This document shows, one piece after another, positions 33,486 to 47,331 of a DNA stretch of 64,000 nt (the first letter of the stretch is position 1; each line of letters opens with the position of its first letter). The DNA is taken from assembly GCA_018056375.1 (NCBI GenBank), contig JAGPFQ010000001.1, positions 167,995-231,994 of the forward strand, in the 5' to 3' direction. The notes under the pieces were generated by a model that saw only the letters and a list, made by a program, of their open reading frames with translations, was not told where the DNA came from and made no database searches. This DNA comes from Candidatus Dojkabacteria bacterium (GTDB lineage: Bacteria; Patescibacteriota; Dojkabacteria; SC72). The position numbers and the translations under genes are program-made.

Positions 33486-36400
33486 TTACAACGGTTTAAA
33501 TCCAACTTCTTTCTTGTATACAGATCTATCTACATCAAAGAAGTTTTCTGCAAATTTAGTATATTTAGGATGGTAGTTAATGATTAAAGCTGGTCTTAGA
33601 GGATTATCTGCACCTAGGTTTCTTTGTAGAACGAATGAAGGAGATTCTCCTCCAATACCAAAGGCAATTAGTCCTCCTACTAGTAATACTTGGTCATGGT
33701 TTTCACTTACAGCTGCATCTTGAGCTATCGTTATTCTCTCTTTAGCAAGTAGGAATGCATCTATTCTGTCTGTACCACCAGTAGCATGTCCATCGTTTAC
33801 AATGATGTTCTTTTCTGAGAATACAAATATTGCATCATTGTTACTAGTTGCTTGGAGAGCTCCTGTTATTGTTATGTTTCCTTGGGAATATATTAAAATT
33901 TTACCAGTGTATTTAAAACTTCCTATTGTTAAATCTTTGTCAGATTTAATATAGCATCCCTTATCGGAAGAGCAGTGCCAATGAGTTGCACTTGGGATTA
34001 TTTCATCTGACAGCTTTTTGTCCATAGATGAGTTTGCTTCTCTCTTTAGTGCTTCATAGAGGTTTACTTTGTTTTGCTCATTTGTATCTTCTACTCCTTT
34101 TGCTACTGCTGGGTTTCTATGCTGTTCTGTACCTCCAAACATGAGGACTTCCCTTATTGGGTCTATACCATTTGCTTTTGTTGTTAATAGTTCTGAACCT
34201 AAGTTGTAAAAGTTAATATTAGGTTCTAGTTTTTTAGTTTCGTACTTAACTGTACCTTCTGAGTAAAATATTCCTCCTTTGGTAGACATCCATCTGTTGT
34301 AATCAAAAGGATCTGGGTCATCTGGGAATGGAGGTTCATCTGGATCTGGGTTTTGGTCTTGTCTACCAGTTCCACCAAAGTTACATGCTCTGTCATAGAG
34401 GGTTACATCGAACTTCAATGTACCAGAGGCTGTGTCACCTGTGTTAACAATCATATTTGTGGAATTACCATTGGAGTTTGTAGGATGATACCAACCACTT
34501 GTAATTACGATATTACCTTGTGCATCATAGCCGATATTACCCATCTCATCTGCACTGAGATTACCTGGTATTACTGCTTTTACTGGAATCGGAAGTGTTC
34601 TTGTTACCTCCTTTTTAGATGAAGAGCTAACATTTACAACTGTATGAACAATTTGAGAGTTAGGATGTCCTTTATCTGTACTGGTCCATTTGAGTTGTAG
34701 GTTTTTTTGATCTTCTGTTGCAAGTCTATCAAGTGTTATTGCTGTTAATCTAGGATTTTTAAAATCAAAGTTCCATATCTGTCCTGTATTTTTAACAGAC
34801 CTAATATCTGCAAAGTATCCATGTGGTTGGGTTGGGAAGAGTGTTAGATTATCCATCATACCTGTCCATATTTGGTATCTACCAGACAATGGTATGTTCT
34901 TTTCAAATTCGATTTTAATTGTCATATCTGTTGTATCTGTAGGATTTTGTGCATTCTTTACACTTTCCAGTGTTATTGTAGCTATTTTTGTTCTTTTACC
35001 ATTATTGTTTACATATATGTATGGTTGTTGAATATTTGAGTTCTGTGGTACATCTCTACCCCAACCTTCAAAACCATTTCCATTATGTGATTTATATATG
35101 CCACCCATGGTATGAACCATTATCCCTATCTTATTTGGGTCTGATAATGTTGCACCTGGTCCTACGCCTGTGAGTGTGTTTCGTTCATTATCGATTGTAC
35201 TTCCTTCTTTAACTAACCAGAGTACTGCAGCATTTATTCTGTGGTTTGCATCATCTTGTTCTGCTGCAAGATTAGTATTTATATCTCTTCCCTTTATTGT
35301 AAATGTGAGAATTCTGTTAGCTTCATTACCAGTGTATCTTGCTTCTGGTGTACATCCTTTAGCAGTGTTACCGGTTGTATTGCCTGTTACAGTTGTAGAG
35401 ATTACAGTAGGTGGTGTGTTTACTACGAAGTTGACTGATTTTGTAGTACCTTTGACCCAATTATCATCACATTTGTTTAGTGTTTCAAAAAAGGAAGAGA
35501 GTGTACCTTGATTTCCAGGGTTAAGTGATGGTGCTGTAGTTGGGATGTTGATAAAAGAGTTGAAGGGATTATCAACATTTAAGGTTCTTAGAATACCATT
35601 TAGTGTTACTCTTAAACCTCTTGCAGTGCTAGGTATACCAGGATTGTTTGTTTCTGTCCTTATCTCTGATGTTTTGTATGGATATCGAATTACTGTTCTT
35701 CTTGTAGAAGAGAGTGGTTGGTATGTCGTCCATTCGAAATTATTAATACCTAATCTTTCATATATTTTAATACTTGTAACATCAGCAGGAGATATGTTTG
35801 TTTCTGGTTTATAACAACTTTTGGTATTACAAATATTCATACCTCCACAACCGTTTTCTTGTATACAGTATGCATCTTGTCCTTTACATAGAGGACCTCC
35901 TTGTTCTGTCATTACATATTGATTATATTCTGTGGGGTCAAATGGTTGATTAGCTTCTTTGCAGTTATCCTCTACAACACATTTATTTGGAGGACATTGG
36001 GGTGTACAACCACCTCCTCCACCTCCTCCACCATGGCAACATTGTCCACTAAACAGTGTTCTTCCGGAATATTGATCAGGAAAGCCTCCTGGAATACAAT
36101 TACAATCATAATATGAAGGGATCGTTGGTGGACAACTGCCTGAATCACAAACCCCAACATCAAAACAGGGAGCAGTAGATCCTCGTTTGCAACACAAAGA
36201 TTCGTTATAGCAATAACGACCAGATGGTTTATCTCGACCTTGACATCTTTTATTAACACAATCTGTTATGCATCGAGGATCCTTTGTACATGTTTCTGGG
36301 GTTTCTTTTCTACATACACCGTTTGATACATCTTCATATGTCCAGCCTATTACAGGGGGTGGTTCTTGAGAGCACTCAAAAATAACTCCTTGAGGTGTTT

Positions 36401-36671
36401 CCCTATATCCTTCTGATCGACATTGTATTGAGACAGTTTCATTTACTTTTTTTTCATGTCCTCGCCCATCACACAGATAATAACTTCCAGGAAACTTAGG
36501 AGCAAAATCACCATAAGGACCATAACAGAGAGCAGGTATTACTCCTGTCTCATGATAACAATCATATGTTACATATGCAAATGATTGTTTTGATTTCAAA
36601 AACAGAGTAAATACTACTAAAACAAGTAAAAGACTTAAAAACAGTTTTTTAGTTGTATTTTGGACAGTCAT
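33486..36671 (-). CDS. large secreted protein with extremely Cys-rich N-terminal module and Gly8 tract
   Basis: signal peptide; about 36 Cys in the first ~260 mature residues; CHGGGGGGGGC; long beta-rich C-terminal region. Confidence 0.6.
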   Translation of the reverse strand: MTVQNTTKKLFLSLLLVLVVFTLFLKSKQSFAYVTYDCYHETGVIPALCYGPYGDFAPKFPGSYYLCDGRGHEKKVNETVSIQCRSEGYRETPQGVIFECSQEPPPVIGWTYEDVSNGVCRKETPETCTKDPRCITDCVNKRCQGRDKPSGRYCYNESLCCKRGSTAPCFDVGVCDSGSCPPTIPSYYDCNCIPGGFPDQYSGRTLFSGQCCHGGGGGGGGCTPQCPPNKCVVEDNCKEANQPFDPTEYNQYVMTEQGGPLCKGQDAYCIQENGCGGMNICNTKSCYKPETNISPADVTSIKIYERLGINNFEWTTYQPLSSTRRTVIRYPYKTSEIRTETNNPGIPSTARGLRVTLNGILRTLNVDNPFNSFINIPTTAPSLNPGNQGTLSSFFETLNKCDDNWVKGTTKSVNFVVNTPPTVISTTVTGNTTGNTAKGCTPEARYTGNEANRILTFTIKGRDINTNLAAEQDDANHRINAAVLWLVKEGSTIDNERNTLTGVGPGATLSDPNKIGIMVHTMGGIYKSHNGNGFEGWGRDVPQNSNIQQPYIYVNNNGKRTKIATITLESVKNAQNPTDTTDMTIKIEFEKNIPLSGRYQIWTGMMDNLTLFPTQPHGYFADIRSVKNTGQIWNFDFKNPRLTAITLDRLATEDQKNLQLKWTSTDKGHPNSQIVHTVVNVSSSSKKEVTRTLPIPVKAVIPGNLSADEMGNIGYDAQGNIVITSGWYHPTNSNGNSTNMIVNTGDTASGTLKFDVTLYDRACNFGGTGRQDQNPDPDEPPFPDDPDPFDYNRWMSTKGGIFYSEGTVKYETKKLEPNINFYNLGSELLTTKANGIDPIREVLMFGGTEQHRNPAVAKGVEDTNEQNKVNLYEALKREANSSMDKKLSDEIIPSATHWHCSSDKGCYIKSDKDLTIGSFKYTGKILIYSQGNITITGALQATSNNDAIFVFSEKNIIVNDGHATGGTDRIDAFLLAKERITIAQDAAVSENHDQVLLVGGLIAFGIGGESPSFVLQRNLGADNPLRPALIINYHPKYTKFAENFFDVDRSVYKKEVGFKPL

Positions 36672-36677
36672 AGTGCT

Positions 36678-38507
36678 TTATTTATAAAAATCTGCTTTAC
36701 TCGCTGGAGTATAAATAGCATTAAGTACTTGTTTTAATTTCTCAAAACCTTCAGGTGATTTAGGGCTGTAAAACACACAGGATGTAGCATCTTCAGATAA
36801 TGGTTCTTCTTCTCCCTTCTCCCAGTCTAAGTGTTTTTGATATACCTCCTCTATTCTTTTAAGACTTGCTTCTAATTCTCCTTCTTCTAGTTCACTTTTA
36901 ATATAGTAGGTTACATATCCAACTCTTCCAGTATATCCATCTTTAATTCCTGTCATATCTCCTATTATGTAATACTCTGTTTCTCCATTCTCTCCTTCTT
37001 GGAAAGTTAAGACAACATCATTCTCTGGTGCATTACCACCATCTATAGTAACTCCACATGTATGCTCATCTGAAAGAGTTACACCCAAACCTATTGGGGC
37101 TCCATGCACCCTAATCTTCTCACCTACTTTAGAAGGTGTACGAGTAGCTATATTGTTTTCATTAATTAAGAGATGTGTTAAAGTTGCCACGAGCGTATCG
37201 AGAGTCCCATTATTACCTCTTGGCCAGTTAAGTAATCTCTTAAATTCCTCTGTACTTATAATCTTTGCAACCTCTACTATTGAATACTCTTCCCCTGCTT
37301 TAAATGGTCCATTTTCCTTTTGATATTCTAAAAGGTTTCTAAAAAAGAGAGAGAGAACTAATTGTTCAGTAGTACTACCTTCTGCAAAGAGATTTCCAAC
37401 AGCAATTTCTTCACTTTCAGAACTTTTGGTAAAATTGATAGTTTCTCCTTCCTCTGTTTCTGCAGAGAGTACTACCACACCTACAGCAACATTCATAGCA
37501 ACTCCAGAGTGATTCCTAAGAGTCCCTACGGTGACACTCTCACCATTCTCACTTGTAATCTTTCTAGTTTCTAATAGTTCAAACTTTGTTTTTTCTGGAA
37601 TATCAAGGATTGTGACATGGTTCCAATAAGACTCTTTTACTTTATCTTCTCCAAATTCTCCCAATGAGAATAAAGGTAATTCATATAAGACAGTCCTGTA
37701 TCCTTCTTTAACTTCTACAATATAACCAGGTTCATGTTTTTCTATGTTGCTTGCTTTAAGTTCTCCTTCCCATTGCATAATGTCTAACATAGAATAATCA
37801 AACTCTTGTGGATCTATCTCTGGTATAGGTGTAGGTGTTGGGTCTAATGTCATAGTAGGTGTAGGTTCTAATGTTGGTGTTGGTTCTATCGTTTTTGTTG
37901 GTACCTCTTGATTAGGAATAGTTGTGTCTTCTATCTCCACATCGTTAGGAATAGAAGTGGAAGAAGATATAGGTATGTGTTCTTTAGGTTGTTCTACCTC
38001 TTTTACTGTCTGACAAGCAGGTGCAGATAATATGAAAGCTAAAGGTGCAGTAGTACGGAATATAGTCTCTGCTACTTCCTTTGGTGTTACATTGTATAAG
38101 GAATTAAGTACTTTATCTCTAACCCTTTTAAAAGTATCATCTTTTTCTCCTTTTACTGACTTCTGAGATTCTTGTAAAGCAAATTGAATGTAACTTCCAA
38201 CTGCATTACGAAAATCATCTGTCTTTTTTTCATCCCACTCTTCCATACCATCTACTAGGTCTTGATAGTCTTTCCTCAATTTCTCTCCATTATCTTCTTC
38301 ATATTTGTCATCTTGCATAAAACCAGAATTGGCAAGATGTTTTTTTAACTCAGCTAATTCCCATGTAGACATTTCACTTTTACCACTTTGTCCAAATGAT
38401 ATGACATCATCTATTTCAGAATCTATCAGCCAATCATCTATATGTTCTGTGTTGTTATAATTATTCGTGGCAGTTTGGTCGAACTTGTTTTTTTCTATAT
38501 CTCCCAT
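36678..38507 (-). CDS. hypothetical protein with acidic N-terminus, Pro/Thr-rich linker and C-terminal domain
   Basis: 609 aa; EPTPTLEPTPTMTLDPTPTP linker; no recognisable domain. Confidence 0.45.
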   Translation of the reverse strand: MGDIEKNKFDQTATNNYNNTEHIDDWLIDSEIDDVISFGQSGKSEMSTWELAELKKHLANSGFMQDDKYEEDNGEKLRKDYQDLVDGMEEWDEKKTDDFRNAVGSYIQFALQESQKSVKGEKDDTFKRVRDKVLNSLYNVTPKEVAETIFRTTAPLAFILSAPACQTVKEVEQPKEHIPISSSTSIPNDVEIEDTTIPNQEVPTKTIEPTPTLEPTPTMTLDPTPTPIPEIDPQEFDYSMLDIMQWEGELKASNIEKHEPGYIVEVKEGYRTVLYELPLFSLGEFGEDKVKESYWNHVTILDIPEKTKFELLETRKITSENGESVTVGTLRNHSGVAMNVAVGVVVLSAETEEGETINFTKSSESEEIAVGNLFAEGSTTEQLVLSLFFRNLLEYQKENGPFKAGEEYSIVEVAKIISTEEFKRLLNWPRGNNGTLDTLVATLTHLLINENNIATRTPSKVGEKIRVHGAPIGLGVTLSDEHTCGVTIDGGNAPENDVVLTFQEGENGETEYYIIGDMTGIKDGYTGRVGYVTYYIKSELEEGELEASLKRIEEVYQKHLDWEKGEEEPLSEDATSCVFYSPKSPEGFEKLKQVLNAIYTPASKADFYK

Positions 38508-40339: not shown

Positions 40340-41148
40340 TACCTGACTATACTATCATATATGCTTCCAATTTTCCCACCATTCTCTTTAGCTATCTGTA
40401 TGAGTTCATTAAAATTATTCTTCAACCATTCTACGTCTCCTTCCCTGTTATGAAGGAGAAGTACTCTACCCTTTTGTTTGTAGTAGAGCTTTCTTAGATA
40501 GTCCATATCTTCTAACTCTGTCATGGTCCATCTCATGTTAAGGAGGTTGTTATCAGTAACCCACTTTATCCATACCCTATCAAAGTATCCATATGGAGCT
40601 CTTACACTCTTTATACTAAAGCTTTGATCTTGAAGTATATTTCTAAATATATCTGTAAAAGCATTAAAATCTTTATCTAACTCCTCTACACTTCTTTTTC
40701 TAGTATGGTCTGTGGTGTGATACCCTATCTCATATCCAGAGTTGTATATATCTCTCCATAGTTCTAGATGTTCTGGATTATGTGGATTGATATATATTGT
40801 GTTTGGGAAGAATGTTGCTGTGATATTGTATTCTCTTAATAACTGATACATTCTTTTTGTTTGTTCAAAGTTATACGAATCATCTATTGTTAGTACTAGG
40901 TTTTTACCAAATATTTCCCAGTTTTCTAGTGTATCATGTGGTAGTTTAAATCTATGAAAGCTATGTGCATTAATCTTAGGTCTGTGGGGTATGTAGTAGG
41001 TGAAGTGTTGTATTTGATTATCTGGTAATTGAAGGGTATATGTGTAGTGGTATTGTGATGATATATCATCGGTGTATTCATAGACGACTTTGTATTTGAT
41101 TGGTTTTGAGATAGGTTTTGTAAAGAAGAACATGTAGTATTTTAACAT
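40339..41148 (-). CDS. polysaccharide deacetylase (NodB homology, CE4)
   Basis: TIDDS motif 1; GYEIGYHTTDH motif. Confidence 0.7.
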   Translation of the reverse strand: MLKYYMFFFTKPISKPIKYKVVYEYTDDISSQYHYTYTLQLPDNQIQHFTYYIPHRPKINAHSFHRFKLPHDTLENWEIFGKNLVLTIDDSYNFEQTKRMYQLLREYNITATFFPNTIYINPHNPEHLELWRDIYNSGYEIGYHTTDHTRKRSVEELDKDFNAFTDIFRNILQDQSFSIKSVRAPYGYFDRVWIKWVTDNNLLNMRWTMTELEDMDYLRKLYYKQKGRVLLLHNREGDVEWLKNNFNELIQIAKENGGKIGSIYDSIVR

Positions 41149-41203
41149 ATTTAGAGGTAATAATATTGAGGTTAAAATTTATAGAAGGTATAATTAGGAT
41201 AGG

Positions 41204-41941
41204 ATGTTTAAACCAACTACAGAGAAAATAAAAAAGATTTACAAAGAGAGAAAGTCTCAAGTAGATTTTTTAGATAAAAAGGTATTTAAAGGTAAAACTA
41301 ATATATATATTGACTGGGCTAATGTGTTTTTTTGGCAAGAAAAACTTGGTTGGCATATTGAAGTCAAAAGGTTGAAGCAATTTCTATCCTCTTTTCAACA
41401 GGTTAATTCTATAAAAATATACCAAGGATATTTTGAAGGGAACAAGGTTGCTGAGCAGGAACTACTTGATTGGGAATCTTGGGGTTTAGAGGTTCGAAAA
41501 AAGCCCATTAAAGAGATAAATATTAGTATAGATTTGACTCCTTTTAGATCAGATGATACGACCGTTATTAATCGAGTAATGCTAAAACAGTTAGTTAAAA
41601 AATTACCAGTTAAAAGTATTGAAATAATAAATAAAGAGATAAGAGAATTGAATAGCAATGGAATTAAGAAACTTTCTATGCATAAATGTAACTTTGATGT
41701 TGAAATGACTAGTGATATGAGGATTGATTCAAGAGATGATGAGAAAGTAAAAACATTTGTAGTATGGAGTGGAGATAGTGATTTTGTAGATACAGTAAAT
41801 GCTTTAGGTAGTGATAATAAAAAAGTTGTTATTTTCTCAACAAAAGGGATGATTTCTTATGAACTTTCTCATTCTAAAGCATATTTCTATGATGTTAAAA
41901 ATATTAAAAACTTTATTTGTTGGAATAAAGAGATAGGGTAA
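41204..41941 (+). CDS. NYN-domain (LabA-like, PIN-like RNase) protein
   Basis: IYIDWANV N-terminal Asp box; VVWSGDSDF C-terminal motif. Confidence 0.6.
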   Translation: MFKPTTEKIKKIYKERKSQVDFLDKKVFKGKTNIYIDWANVFFWQEKLGWHIEVKRLKQFLSSFQQVNSIKIYQGYFEGNKVAEQELLDWESWGLEVRKKPIKEINISIDLTPFRSDDTTVINRVMLKQLVKKLPVKSIEIINKEIRELNSNGIKKLSMHKCNFDVEMTSDMRIDSRDDEKVKTFVVWSGDSDFVDTVNALGSDNKKVVIFSTKGMISYELSHSKAYFYDVKNIKNFICWNKEIG

Positions 41942-41950
41942 TAAAAGCAA

Positions 41951-41976
41951 AAAAGGGCTCTATTCAGAGTCCTTTT
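41951..41976 (+). terminator. hairpin plus T-run after the NYN gene
   Basis: GGGCTCT-attc-AGAGTCC followed by TTTT. Confidence 0.45.
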
Positions 41977-42090
41977 AAGCCATTGTCTTCTTGACATTAA
42001 GTCAACTGCATTATATCTAAAAGGTTTGTAGATGTCAAATGATGCATTAGTTTACATTAGCTGCGTCCAAGTATAATCTTGTAGTTAAAA

Positions 42091-42597
42091 CTAGAATCTA
42101 GGTTTTTCTTCACAATCTTTTATTATCTCAAGAAGACTTTTCCAATATTTAGAATTAACAAATTTTTCTACTTCTTTATTTGCAATCCTATTTATCTCTT
42201 TCTTTCCTACATTCTTTTTACCAATTACCTTCTTCATTTCATCTTCTAGACAATCCTCATGCCAGAATATATGTATATTAGGAAATTGTTTTTCTATCTT
42301 CTTCTTCTCTTTTTCCCAATTTTTAGGGAAATCCTCTTTTAGTTTATCTAAGTCAATGAAACAAATAACTATGTCAAAGTCTCTGTTAGAAGATGTTTGA
42401 TAGCATTTTTGTAGTATTGTTTCAGGACAACCACCTGATGCATTGTCTAAAAGAAAAATCCATTTTGATGTATGATACTTAAACTTCTTGAGAGAAGAGA
42501 GATTTTTTATGAAGGTTTTATCTTTCCTTCCTTCACCAAAGAGCAGTCCTGTATATGGATGCCCTGTACTAGATTTTGATGTTTGGGAATGCTCCAT
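42091..42597 (-). CDS. small TOPRIM-like protein (DUF4276-like), partner of the upstream ATPase
   Basis: GEG glutamate followed about 60 aa later by DLD (TOPRIM E...DxD pattern); 29-nt overlap with the ATPase gene. Confidence 0.5.
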   Translation of the reverse strand: MEHSQTSKSSTGHPYTGLLFGEGRKDKTFIKNLSSLKKFKYHTSKWIFLLDNASGGCPETILQKCYQTSSNRDFDIVICFIDLDKLKEDFPKNWEKEKKKIEKQFPNIHIFWHEDCLEDEMKKVIGKKNVGKKEINRIANKEVEKFVNSKYWKSLLEIIKDCEEKPRF

Positions 42598-43753
42598 ATT
42601 TTCCAGCTAGATATTTATTTAAAAAATTATCATCACTTCTTACACCATCTATTTTGTTTAATCTTTTAACAATGCTTTCTCCATCATTGTTCTTTTCTGT
42701 TAGATAGATTTGGTGCATATCTAGCTTGTTCATACTAGCAAGTGAGAGTGAGGAGAAGATTAGTTGTGCATGTCCATCAGCATTTTCATCAATGAAATAT
42801 GTAATTATCTTGTTTAGAGCCTCCGGGTGCAATCCTAGTTCTATTTCATCTATGATTGCGACTCCATTGTATTTGAGGGCTTTAAGTATCTTTGTCATTA
42901 AGAAGAAAATACTCTGTGTTCCTCTTGATTCGTAGAGGAAAGGAAGCCTTTTATCTCCGTGAGAGGTTGTATGTATACCTGATACCATATAGTCGGTAAA
43001 TGCACTTCCTTTTTTTACTTCTTTTTCTATTTCTATACTAGTTAACCCCAAGTCAAAATTCTTCATAACATCAAGAGTCTTCTCTTTTATCTCTGTGTCT
43101 CTTTCATATGATTCAAAGGCATCTATTTGGTAAGGAATGATATTGTGTTGTCCAATCTCATTTATATTAGTGTAGAAATTATTGAAATATTCTATGAGTG
43201 TATTGATTACTTCTATATCATAGAGAGATTTTAGGAATGGGATAAAGGAGATATCTTCTCTAATTCTTGGCAATATTGATGGTTTAAGATTTTTAAAATA
43301 CCTCTTGTTTAATTCTAATATATTATCTTTCTCCCTTTTGAAGAGAGTAACAGGCTGTGCTCCTTTTTTAATCTCTTTTACTATTAATATTTCTTTGTTT
43401 ACACTGTTTTCTTTTAATACCAATTTGTATGTAAATATGTTTTCTTTAATCTCAAAAACTATTTCAATATTGGTAGGTTTCTTGTTATTGAAGAAATTAC
43501 TGTATGGAATGAATATATTTTCTACATTACCATTTCTATTTAGATTTGTGAGAAAGTATCCAAGAAATCCAAAAAGTCTGATAACATTAGTTTTACCAGA
43601 AGCATTCGCACCTATGAAAGACGCTACTTTAGTTATCTGGTCTCCTTTGGGAGAGTTAAAGTAATCGTAGGAATCTTTTTTGTTTGCAGTAAAATCAATT
43701 TCTTGTCTCTCTTTAAAGGAGTAGAAATTGTCAAATGTTATACTTCTAATCAT
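42569..43753 (-). CDS. AAA_21/ABC-type ATPase of the OLD/AbiL/PARIS-AriA class
   Basis: Walker A GANASGKT, Q-loop/signature region, Walker B AIIDEIELGLHP, H-loop. Confidence 0.75.
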   Translation of the reverse strand: MIRSITFDNFYSFKERQEIDFTANKKDSYDYFNSPKGDQITKVASFIGANASGKTNVIRLFGFLGYFLTNLNRNGNVENIFIPYSNFFNNKKPTNIEIVFEIKENIFTYKLVLKENSVNKEILIVKEIKKGAQPVTLFKREKDNILELNKRYFKNLKPSILPRIREDISFIPFLKSLYDIEVINTLIEYFNNFYTNINEIGQHNIIPYQIDAFESYERDTEIKEKTLDVMKNFDLGLTSIEIEKEVKKGSAFTDYMVSGIHTTSHGDKRLPFLYESRGTQSIFFLMTKILKALKYNGVAIIDEIELGLHPEALNKIITYFIDENADGHAQLIFSSLSLASMNKLDMHQIYLTEKNNDGESIVKRLNKIDGVRSDDNFLNKYLAGKYGAFPNIKI

Positions 43754-43872
43754 AAGTTTTGTTAATTTTGAATATATTATACTTACCTAAACTAAGTATA
43801 CAGAAAAGAGACAAAGATTGCAAGTTGCTACAGATTGTTGTAGTAAACACCAAAGTGGTACTCTCTTAAATT

Positions 43873-45057
43873 GTGTATAATGAACTCATGGATGTAGAAC
43901 TTTCATCTAAACAGAAAAAGGTAGTAGATAGTATCTTAGATTGGTACAAGAGTAAGAAGACTCAGTATGTGACTCTAGGTGGATATGCAGGTACTGGTAA
44001 GACTACCCTACTTGGTCATCTTGGGAATATGTTGCATAGGGAGTATAAAGGGATTTCAATTGCATATTGTTCATTTACTGGTAAGGCTTCTTTAGTGTTA
44101 AAAAAGAAATTAGAAGAGAGTAAGTCTTTAGATCCTTCTGATTACATAGGTACTATTCATAGATTGATATACAAAGCTATTGTAGATGAGGATGACAACA
44201 TTATCGGTTGGGAGAAGATACCTGTTGATTCGTTTGAATATGATTTAATTGTTGTAGATGAAGCATCTATGGTCTCTGAAGATATATGGAATGATCTTCT
44301 TAGTTTTGAGAAACCAATTCTTGCTGTTGGAGACCATGGTCAGTTACCACCTGTTGAAGGTAAGTTTAATCTCATGGCTTCCCCTATGCTTCGTCTTGAG
44401 GAGATATATCGTCAAGAGAGAGGTAATCCAATTATCATGGTTTCAGAGCTAGCAAGAAAGTATGGAGATATCCCTGTTATGGAGTTCTCCTCTACTGTTA
44501 GGAAGTTTAGTAAGGAAGATGAGAACCTCCAAGAGTTTCTTTCAGAGAAGTTGTCTGGATATGATGAGAATATGATGGTATTGGTGGGATACAATCATAC
44601 TAGGGTGAAGTTAAATAACGGGATTAGGCAATTCTTAGAATTTGACAGTCCAAAACCTCAAATTGAAGACAGAGTTATATGTCTTAGAAACAATGCAGAG
44701 TTAGGTATATTTAATGGTATGTTAGGTACAGTTCAATCAATTGAGAAGAAGAATTTAGCAGATATGCTTGAATATTATGATGTTGATATACAGTTTGATG
44801 GAGAGGATAACCTATTCCATGGGAGTATGTCCGCTGAACAGTTTGGTCAGAGAGAAACTATGAGGAGTATTGGAAGAGAGATAGATCTTTTTGATTTCGG
44901 TTATGCTTTGACTGTACACAAAGCACAGGGTAGTCAAGCTGAGAAGGTTATACTTTTTGAAGAGAGATTTCCCAAGATGGATGATGATATGTGGAGGAGA
45001 TGGTTGTATACAGGTGTTACTAGGGCTGTTAGTGAGTTGTATATTGTTGGGAGGTAG
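43873..45057 (+). CDS. SF1B RecD/Dda/Pif1-like DNA helicase
   Basis: motif I GGYAGTGKT, motif II VVDEASMV, motif III AVGDHGQLPPV, C-terminal HKAQGSQ. Confidence 0.8.
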   Translation: MYNELMDVELSSKQKKVVDSILDWYKSKKTQYVTLGGYAGTGKTTLLGHLGNMLHREYKGISIAYCSFTGKASLVLKKKLEESKSLDPSDYIGTIHRLIYKAIVDEDDNIIGWEKIPVDSFEYDLIVVDEASMVSEDIWNDLLSFEKPILAVGDHGQLPPVEGKFNLMASPMLRLEEIYRQERGNPIIMVSELARKYGDIPVMEFSSTVRKFSKEDENLQEFLSEKLSGYDENMMVLVGYNHTRVKLNNGIRQFLEFDSPKPQIEDRVICLRNNAELGIFNGMLGTVQSIEKKNLADMLEYYDVDIQFDGEDNLFHGSMSAEQFGQRETMRSIGREIDLFDFGYALTVHKAQGSQAEKVILFEERFPKMDDDMWRRWLYTGVTRAVSELYIVGR

Positions 45058-45717: not shown

Positions 45718-46695
45718 ATGGTAAGTAAAGCATCTTTAAGTATAGAGAAGTTTAAACATATACTTTACTCTTGTTATGACTCCTCTACTGCATATGAAGC
45801 AACTAAAAAGATTTGGAGTAAAGAGAATAGATTTCTTGGTCAATGTGTAGTAACAGCACTTTTAGTTCAAGAATATTTTGGTGGAGATATTAAGAGAGGA
45901 TATATACCAGAGATGAATATGTCTCACTATTGGAATTATATTGATAGTAAGAAGGTTGTTTTAACAATAGAACAGATGGGTGATATATCAGATGTTAAGA
46001 TAAAGGATATAACTACTAAATCTAGAAATAACCTGCTAGAAAATGATTCAATTTCTACTAGATACTTCTTACTTAAGGAAAGAGTAGAGAAAAGGATAAA
46101 GGAGTGGGAAAGTTTAGAAAAGAAGATGTCTTTGTGTAGGAAGTGTAATATGCCATCATATTTTGAACATGATAGTGTACACTTTGGTAGTAATTGTGAT
46201 TTACTGTTTGTAGGAGAAGCTCCAGCAAAGAATGGTTGGAGGGTTACAGGTAGAGCTTGGTACAACCCTTCTGGTAATTTAGTTCCATCAGGTAAGGTTT
46301 TTGCTAAGTTGTTGGAGATAATAGATATTAGTGAGGTATCGGATATAACATTTTTAGAAGCAGTTCAGTGCTATCCGTTAGAAGGGAAAGTGAGGAGTGA
46401 GCATATAAAGAATTGTCAGCCTTTGTTAAGAGAACAGATATACCTGTTAGATCCATTAGTTATTATTCCTATGGGAGTAAAAGCTACGAAGGCATTATTA
46501 AATTTTACGAACTTTTCAGATGTTGTTGGTAAGTTTTCATCTGTTAGAATAAAAGGTAACGATTATAATGTTTTTCCAATGTATCATCCTTCCCCTATTT
46601 CACCAAAAAGTTTGAAAGATAATATTGTAGTATTTGAGAATCTTAAGAGGTATCTGTTAGAGATAGAGGATGAGAAGAGAAATGTAGTACTTTAA
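45718..46695 (+). CDS. uracil-DNA glycosylase superfamily (family 4-like) domain fused to an unknown ~150-aa N-terminal domain
   Basis: motif A GEAPAKNG; motif B HPSPISP; internal Cys cluster. Confidence 0.55.
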   Translation: MVSKASLSIEKFKHILYSCYDSSTAYEATKKIWSKENRFLGQCVVTALLVQEYFGGDIKRGYIPEMNMSHYWNYIDSKKVVLTIEQMGDISDVKIKDITTKSRNNLLENDSISTRYFLLKERVEKRIKEWESLEKKMSLCRKCNMPSYFEHDSVHFGSNCDLLFVGEAPAKNGWRVTGRAWYNPSGNLVPSGKVFAKLLEIIDISEVSDITFLEAVQCYPLEGKVRSEHIKNCQPLLREQIYLLDPLVIIPMGVKATKALLNFTNFSDVVGKFSSVRIKGNDYNVFPMYHPSPISPKSLKDNIVVFENLKRYLLEIEDEKRNVVL

Positions 46696-46860
46696 ACTCC
46701 TATATTTTATAAGTAATAATTCTTCTAATAGCTTATATCTATCTGAAAACAAGGTTAGTATTTTCATCTATTTTTTGATATAATTATAGATAGGAAGCAG
46801 GGTAGCACCCTCTGCTGTATTGAAATAATATACACAAGGCGGAGGTAGACGCCCTGCTTG

Positions 46861-47331
46861 CTATTTAAGTACAATCTTGTGCAGTCCTTTCTTATCATAA
46901 ACTATTATATTATTAATATATCTCTTCTTTGCTTTATTCTTAATACGAGAAGAATTATACTCACATAATCGTTTTAGAAGTTTTTCTTGAAGAATATTGT
47001 TTCCTAGATCTAAAAATATATTTCTTTTTCCTTTATCTACTGACTCATTAATCCTTTTAATAACAGTTCTTTCTGAAAAATTCTTTTTTAATATGCTTTT
47101 TAATTCCCATTCTTGATTATTCCAAATAAAATCATTGGTTGGATAATATCCTCCTGTTTTAGTATCTACAAGACTATCTCTCTTTATCCATTTAATATCT
47201 TCTCCTCTTTCTGTAAACCTTTTTACAAAATTTCTTTCATGTACCCTAAGAATATTGTTATCCTCATATTCTTTCTTTGTTAAACCAATTCTTCTGTATA
47301 TGGGAGTATTTAGAAAATTTTTCTTTCTCAT
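46861..47331 (-). CDS. basic hypothetical protein, possible PD-(D/E)xK nuclease
   Basis: NDFIW...EWELK pattern; 156 aa; Lys/Arg-rich. Confidence 0.3.
   Translation of the reverse strand: MRKKNFLNTPIYRRIGLTKKEYEDNNILRVHERNFVKRFTERGEDIKWIKRDSLVDTKTGGYYPTNDFIWNNQEWELKSILKKNFSERTVIKRINESVDKGKRNIFLDLGNNILQEKLLKRLCEYNSSRIKNKAKKRYINNIIVYDKKGLHKIVLK

Follow-up and report, generated by a model that had tools for sequence, protein, structure and literature searches.

The AbiL abortive-infection system of Lactococcus lactis (PMC13064643) has been placed by Burman et al. alongside OLD, Gabija and PARIS, among the defence systems that combine an ATP-binding cassette (ABC) ATPase with a TOPRIM component (PMC11464382, PMC13064643). 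Here we describe a pair of overlapping genes from a Candidatus Dojkabacteria bacterium which we consider, with a probability of roughly 0.72, to be a two-component module of the AbiL/RloAB type, in which a sensor ATPase would restrain a toxic nuclease. The pair lies in a window of 64,000 nt, which is the whole stretch of DNA that was analysed; all coordinates are window positions, and residue numbers are those of the two window proteins. The two genes are as follows.

42569 to 43753, minus strand: ATPase gene, 394 amino acids (aa), ATG start; ABC-type (Rad50/SMC-like), AAA_21/AAA_15, AbiLi/RloA-type
42091 to 42597, minus strand: small-protein gene, 168 aa, ATG start; divergent RloB/AbiLii-family, TOPRIM-like

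Comparison with described systems

AbiL (AbiLi plus AbiLii, from L. lactis) and RloA/RloB (from Campylobacter, plasmids and phages) are likewise co-oriented operons of an ATPase followed by an RloB-type gene, and the window pair shares with them an AAA_21/AAA_15 ABC ATPase that precedes an RloB-family TOPRIM protein of ~170–200 aa. The small protein has in common with RloB the motifs GEG-x2-(D/E), GGSP, YD and DxD, and a downstream Glu. A difference from AbiL/RloAB is that the clade of the window pair is seen mostly in metagenome-assembled genomes (MAGs) of Patescibacteria, or candidate phyla radiation (CPR), type. Judged by sequence, the pair belongs to the known AbiL/RloAB class as a divergent subfamily, found mostly in CPR bacteria, and the part that is new is modest.

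PARIS also consists of a split ABC ATPase, AriA, and a separate TOPRIM effector, AriB; a hexamer of AriA sequesters AriB, the phage protein Ocr triggers its release, and AriB then cleaves tRNA (PMC11464382). The two-metal site of AriB comprises E26/D30/D88/E90/E122 (PMC11464382), and the acidic residues of the window small protein have nearly the same spacing (E22 to D26, +4; E22 to D82, +60; D82 to D84, +2; D82 to E118, +36). Basic residues (R24, K25 and K27) directly follow E22 in the window protein, much like R28 and R31 after E26 in AriB, which are in contact with AriA (PMC11464382); a parallel between the two sets of residues would be speculative. The initial annotation had called the pair AbiL/PARIS-like; the likeness to PARIS did not hold, and the pair is AbiL/RloAB-like instead. 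PARIS membership was rejected because the small protein has no match to DUF4435 (PF14491) in Pfam at E ≤ 0.1, whereas AriB is a ~35 kDa DUF4435 protein with a dimerisation region. AriA, at ~55 kDa, also differs from the 394-aa window ATPase, for which AbiLi is a far stronger match than AriA. No AriB or AriAB match was returned by PADLOC at E ≤ 1, and searches of PDB sequences gave no match to AriA or AriB for either protein. As a source of analogy, PARIS may be regarded as the best available mechanistic model for the pair.

The OLD family (class 1, P2 Old and Ts OLD; class 2, Gabija GajA) likewise brings together an ABC ATPase and TOPRIM chemistry, with DNA as the nucleic-acid target of OLD and GajA, but in these proteins both domains are fused in one polypeptide, whereas the window pair is encoded by separate genes. 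Gabija, in addition, requires the UvrD-like GajB, whereas the helicase gene next to the window pair is RecD-like, divergent and does not travel with it. The fold and C-terminal motifs of the ATPase also resemble those of PtuA from the Septu/retron PtuA–PtuB systems, but PtuB is an HNH nuclease and the window partner is TOPRIM-like.

The two proteins

The ATPase gene comes first, and the ATG of the small open reading frame (ORF) lies 29 nt inside its 3′ end, giving a 29-nt overlap. They are separate ORFs and not a fusion, with the ATPase stop codon at 42569–42571. Between the ATG of the small ORF and its conserved core there is no in-frame ATG, GTG or TTG, and the annotated ATG is therefore the likely start. 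The overlap may couple translation of both genes and thereby fix their stoichiometry. The window is AT-rich (~33% GC), and the composition of the two genes is not distinct from that of their surroundings. Both can be taken as genuine genes and not chance ORFs, because both have many homologues. For the ATPase these number more than 442, nearly all of 388–400 aa, with Patescibacteria, Paceibacterota, Margulisbacteria and Wirthbacteria as named sources. For the small protein, a word-indexed search returned 33 homologues of 97–185 aa, most of them 150–185 aa, and an exhaustive hidden Markov model search of 1.84 billion representatives returned 96 relatives at E ≤ 1e-3, 65 of them at E ≤ 1e-10.

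In Pfam, the ATPase matched AAA_21 (E 7.9e-30) and AAA_15 (E 2.2e-11). Among the models of PADLOC-DB 2.0, AbiLi (PDLC02335) was the best by far (E 2e-62, 209 bits, residues 1–393), with weaker matches to AriA (7.8e-30) and then to HEC-01A, mad3, PtuA and GajA, the last of these covering just the C-terminal ATPase segment (E 5.4e-7). The ABC-type motifs that had been read in this ORF were confirmed, namely Walker A GANASGKTN (48–56), a signature-like YESRGTQ (274–280), Walker B IIDEIE (299–305) and an H-loop GLHP (307–310). In an alignment of 41 ATPase sequences, G48, N50, A51, G53, K54 and T55 of Walker A are invariant, as are YESxGT (274–279), D302-E303 of Walker B, E305 and H309; the protein is expected to bind and hydrolyse ATP. 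The AlphaFold (AF2) model of the ATPase has a mean predicted local distance difference test score (pLDDT) of 84.9 and a predicted template modelling score (pTM) of 0.86. Foldseek matched it to the ATPase heads of Rad50, SMC and PtuA at E 1e-10 to 1e-11, with the Rad50 heads best, and a profile search of PDB sequences with the ATPase gave marginal matches to Thermus OLD (best) and PtuA.

The overlapping 168-aa ORF does contain, as first described, a GEG (E22) and a DLD (D82, D84) 60 residues on, as well as an acidic EDE cluster (118–120) that was absent from the initial annotation. Across a set of 44 sequences, made up of the window protein and 43 full-length representatives, E22, D82, D84 and E118 are conserved in all 44, E120 occurs in 43, and position 26 is occupied by D or E without exception. 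The predicted structure (pLDDT 86.7, pTM 0.81) has a β–α–β–α–β–α–β core with strands at 15–21, 46–52, 76–82 and 109–113, and residues 1–11 are predicted to be disordered. In this model, E22 follows closely on strand 1, the DxD sits where strand 3 ends, and E118-D-E120 comes a few residues past strand 4, a layout of acidic residues which, as modelled, is the TOPRIM arrangement. Foldseek found nothing in the PDB at E ≤ 1e-3 with the small-protein model, the TOPRIM regions of OLD and GajA being its top or near-top matches, and both single-sequence and profile searches of PDB sequences with the small protein gave nothing meaningful. The structural searches fit a TOPRIM reading of the protein and are not decisive.

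The link to RloB and AbiLii

The small protein matches the Pfam family RloB (PF13707) with 20.4 bits (E 6.4e-4), residues 22–118 aligning to positions 6–110 of the 195-position profile. Among 29 members of its family, 13 match RloB weakly (best E 2.5e-5) and two match DUF3226. A resemblance to DUF4276 (PF14103) had also been proposed; Pfam gave no such match at E ≤ 0.1, either for the window protein or for any of the 29 family members, RloB and DUF3226 being the sole related families seen, and the relationship is with RloB. NCBIfam gave no useful match for the small protein.

Profile–profile comparison makes the relationship much plainer. The alignment of the window protein's family (A1) was compared using hhalign with an alignment of the weak tail of the exhaustive search (A3), which consists of proteins of 163–206 aa, 15 of 19 matching Pfam RloB (best E 2.3e-13). 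The two aligned with 99.5% probability (E 1e-22), pairing up GEG-x2-(D/E), GGSP, YD, DxD and the downstream Glu. A third alignment (A6), which includes plasmid and phage RloB proteins (up to 113 bits on Pfam RloB, with PADLOC AbiLii matches) and a Lactococcus prophage protein, matched A1 with 99.0% probability (E 3e-18, 128 columns).

Gene order in mobile elements connects the same families. Using tblastn, the ATPase matched 160 records of annotated plasmids at full length with 26–29% identity, and in the three records inspected the gene after the ATPase carries an RloB annotation (domain or family protein), the products being 170, 206 and 179 aa long. These partners score 30.7, 113.3 and 39.4 bits on Pfam RloB, respectively, and 1e-10 to 1e-21 on PADLOC AbiLii, while a plasmid RloA-type ATPase matches the PADLOC AbiLi model at 4.6e-82. 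Relatives of this kind sit on small (4–5 kb), mobilisable plasmids. A homologous ATPase adjoins a 174-aa RloB protein in a Stenotrophomonas phage, and Lactococcus prophage proPhi7, whose AbiL-like pair served in the comparison in place of the prototype L. lactis AbiL, has two ‘abortive phage resistance’ genes after the lysin, the second encoding a protein of 192 aa with 89.4 bits on RloB. Identity of the window ATPase to its plasmid and phage relatives is about 24–31%, and 26–31% for the homologues that adjoin annotated RloB proteins on the plasmids, in the Stenotrophomonas phage and in the Lactococcus prophage.

Because the A3 tail, the plasmid pairs and the phage-borne pairs all connect the family to RloB, the small protein is, from its sequence relationships, clearly a divergent RloB/AbiLii-family protein. 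The AbiLii-type resemblance suggested at first is thus borne out by profile–profile homology, as is the wider proposal of an AbiL-like split pair, in which an ABC ATPase goes with a small TOPRIM-like protein encoded separately, through the AbiLi match and the invariant E...DxD...E. The idea that its small size makes the protein a minimal variant fails, since the RloB partners of homologous ATPases are of 170–206 aa (170, 174, 179, 192 and 206 aa on plasmids and phages) and 168 aa is ordinary for the family.

Pairing and distribution

In 185,579 species genomes, a pattern-based scan yielded 27 loci, which were pooled with loci found through ATPase homologues. Most of the 27 belong to CPR lineages, viz. 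Dojkabacteria, Saccharibacteria, Peribacteria, Gracilibacteria, Falkowbacteria, Moranbacteria, Uhrbacteria, Paceibacteria, Minisyncoccia and Wirthbacteria. The ATPase gene is directly upstream and on the same strand in every distinct locus with enough sequence to check (25 of 25), and across these loci the two genes overlap or sit a few tens of nt apart. When three ORFs on each side were compared for the 25 loci, one similarity between different loci was seen and no more; examples of flanking genes are ClpB with bactofilin and RNase HII, and a methyltransferase with dihydroorotate dehydrogenase. As the pairing is constant while the flanking genes are not shared, the pair is a self-contained, portable two-gene cassette and not part of a conserved housekeeping operon. 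ATPase homologues do occur among housekeeping genes, but in non-conserved positions.

Six of the 27 loci (L014, L018, L020, L022, L030 and L032) come from MAGs labelled Pseudomonadales or Gammaproteobacteria, and could be mis-binned CPR contigs or the result of horizontal transfer. At a further locus (L034, 6001–6240), a C-terminal RloB-like fragment (residues 79–158) has 6 kb of upstream sequence without an ATPase gene, and is perhaps what is left of a decayed module.

Proposed mechanism and alternative explanations

By analogy with PARIS, OLD, Gabija and the ATPase-neutralised TOPRIM toxins, the ATPase, as the presumed sensor or scaffold subunit, would oligomerise and, in a complex with the TOPRIM nuclease, keep it inactive. 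The trigger would be a phage-derived cue that shifts the state of the ATPase, so that the nuclease is freed or activated; the freed enzyme, presumed to be metal-dependent, would then take host or phage nucleic acid as its substrate, and the anti-phage phenotype would consist of growth arrest and an aborted infection. In validated pairs, AAA ATPases neutralise TOPRIM_OLD toxins, and in the NetFlax network RloB-type nodes connect to the same ATPase node as TOPRIM_OLD (PMC10440598). The AbiLii protein of F. nucleatum is toxic in E. coli (PMC3985639).

A number of observations weigh against an AbiL/RloAB-type module of this kind. The score of the small protein misses the Pfam RloB gathering threshold of 31.5 bits. 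The PADLOC check that had been proposed gave AbiLi for the ATPase but missed the small protein, for which the best AbiLii model (PDLC02338) reached E 0.083 and 11.3 bits, and for P0154, P0155 and the partner at L004, all three close relatives, there was no PADLOC AbiLii match; PADLOC-style rules would therefore call no AbiL system here. Unlike AbiL/RloAB, the small protein is without the conserved Cys of the third motif, which reads xLEDE with an invariant Trp before it, in place of the canonical RloB PCxEG. Its C-terminal quarter (~130–168) aligns with RloB only in part, if at all, and the alignment ends at 118 with Pfam RloB, 129 with A3 and 147 with A6. The viral contigs searched yielded no relative of the small protein. 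Lastly, in the sole published test, AbiLi supplied in trans failed to neutralise the toxicity of F. nucleatum AbiLii (PMC3985639), and the sequestration model may therefore not carry over from PARIS.

Since an invariant W-x5-E-D-E replaces PCxEG and the last ~40 residues align with RloB only in part, if at all, the CPR-type clade might be a functionally distinct branch of ATPase–TOPRIM systems and not just a divergent AbiL, a reading that we regard as unlikely. If true, the clade could differ in its metal site, its substrate or its trigger, perhaps as a fit to the phages of the ultra-small Patescibacteria or to their host-attached way of life, and it would be a common CPR defence module overlooked by current defence-finding tools.

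Most of the data are also compatible with a selfish toxin–antitoxin (TA), or addiction, cassette without a role in phage defence, whose TOPRIM toxin and ATPase neutraliser would persist via post-segregational killing or horizontal transfer. A portable two-gene unit with unrelated flanks would suit such an element, as would the relatives on 4–5 kb mobilisable plasmids, the toxicity of F. nucleatum AbiLii (PMC3985639), and the fact that NetFlax assigns AAA plus RloB/TOPRIM pairs to its network of type II TA systems, with AAA antitoxins having been validated (PMC10440598). Addiction is not exclusive of defence, however, PARIS being both TA-like and anti-phage (PMC13064643). Furthermore, the prototype AbiL was discovered through a phage-resistance phenotype, and the copies described here lie on the chromosomes of small CPR genomes, to which plasmid addiction is inapplicable; we consider addiction without defence to be improbable.

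RecF/RecR, too, combines an ABC ATPase with a Toprim protein, and nucleases such as Mre11 work together with Rad50-like ATPases, raising the question of a housekeeping DNA repair or recombination machine, RecF/RecR-like or Rad50–Mre11-like, that acts as a stand-in in a reduced CPR genome. The preference of Foldseek for Rad50 heads would agree with this, and the pair sits among housekeeping genes elsewhere and, in the window, near genes for the RecD-like helicase, an ExoX-like exonuclease and a uracil-DNA glycosylase. These three neighbours accompany the pair in same-species contigs only, however, there is no conserved synteny, and the distribution is sparse for a housekeeping function (27 loci in 185,579 species genomes; 96 representatives in 1.84 billion proteins). 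With the AbiLi defence model as the strongest family match and relatives on plasmids and phages, a repair role is very unlikely. Least probable of all is an accessory that modulates or backs up an adjacent restriction-modification (R-M) system, for although RloA/RloB were first described in Campylobacter type I R-M loci (PMC10440598, PMC13064643) and the Stenotrophomonas phage copy adjoins an MT-A70 methyltransferase, no hsdR, hsdM, hsdS or other R-M gene was present among the window neighbours scanned, and no flanking gene family recurs in the 25 loci.

The AbiL/RloAB-type reading has a bearing on how such loci are counted. The genomes of CPR/Patescibacteria are tiny and usually reported to be poor in recognisable defence systems. 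Because the ATPase is readily recognised while the effector escapes both the Pfam thresholds and the PADLOC models, this locus would be scored as an orphan ATPase in automated surveys, and AbiL-type systems in the CPR would be undercounted, an error that RloB/AbiLii profiles extended with the window subfamily would mend. The compact pair of 394 and 168 aa could also suit structural and biochemical work on the AbiL/RloAB class. The description of the pair as an uncharacterised variant holds narrowly, for a subfamily that scores under the Pfam threshold and escapes PADLOC AbiLii, but the class was already known, and the result adds incrementally to a known family and is not a new kind of system.

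Flanking sequences and neighbouring genes

Two features on either side of the pair may serve its expression.

43754 to 43872, minus strand: intergenic region of 119 bp, likely operon promoter region, shared with the divergent RecD-like helicase gene
41946 to 41981, minus strand: hairpin then U-run, possible operon terminator, 110 nt past the stop of the small ORF

The intergenic region contains a sigma-70-like TTGCAA-17-TATACT (minus strand, 43823–43795), a weak match of 9/12 to the consensus alone, which does not imply function. It is possible that the hairpin terminates the operon, and does so bidirectionally with a convergent gene for an NYN-domain protein. The RNA fold of 41940–42004 (minus strand) has −17.5 kcal/mol and a z of −3.1; the hairpin was not among the calls of a terminator scan, and it falls in a segment missing from L010, a near-identical Dojkabacteria MAG contig with the same gene block at 91–99% amino-acid identity to the window, which places the window in that CPR/Patescibacteria lineage or very close to it. 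A search of Rfam with 41100–44000 gave no credible match.

A perfect sigma-70 consensus (TTGACA, 17 nt, TATAAT; 12/12) is found on the minus strand at 42038–42010, and is followed by ~60 nt with two hairpins and a U-run, inside the strain-variable segment. The stretch 41940–42038 (minus strand) may be a small RNA, or merely a terminator common to the convergent genes.

The NYN-domain (LabA-like) nuclease gene at 41204–41941 (plus strand) is convergent with the RloB-like gene. A segment of ~950 bp around it (roughly 41155–42104) is absent from L010, reflecting a strain-level insertion or deletion, and in L010 the RloB-like gene directly abuts a polysaccharide deacetylase gene. The NYN gene was considered as a third component of the module and rejected, being absent from L010 and from every other locus.

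On the other side of the pair, a gene for a compact RecD2/SF1B-like helicase of 394 aa (43873–45057, plus strand, GTG start) is divergent from the ATPase gene and 119 bp from it. It matches AAA_30, UvrD_C_2 and PADLOC PDC-M16A (1.2e-41), and is probably outside the module, because it is a companion of the pair in the same-species contig only. A Gabija-like link between the pair and this helicase was rejected for want of co-occurrence beyond the same species.

Two further genes have no counterpart in L010. One, at 45718–46695 (plus strand), encodes a fusion of YunG with a uracil-DNA-glycosylase-superfamily domain; the other is an unannotated ORF of 156 aa (orf156; 46861–47331, minus strand) that contains a D...ExK-like stretch, ‘DFIWNNQEWELK’. 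The flanking orf95 and MetAP are nearer each other in L010, and 45718–47331 is a second variable spot, on the far side of the ATPase/RloB/RecD-like block.

Two very large ORFs, of 1061 and 609 aa, occupy 33486–38507 (minus strand), a short way downstream of the region. As read from its translation, the 1061-aa ORF has a signal-like segment at the N terminus and a region rich in Cys and Gly, and the two may be CPR surface or secreted proteins, unrelated to the ATPase/RloB pair.

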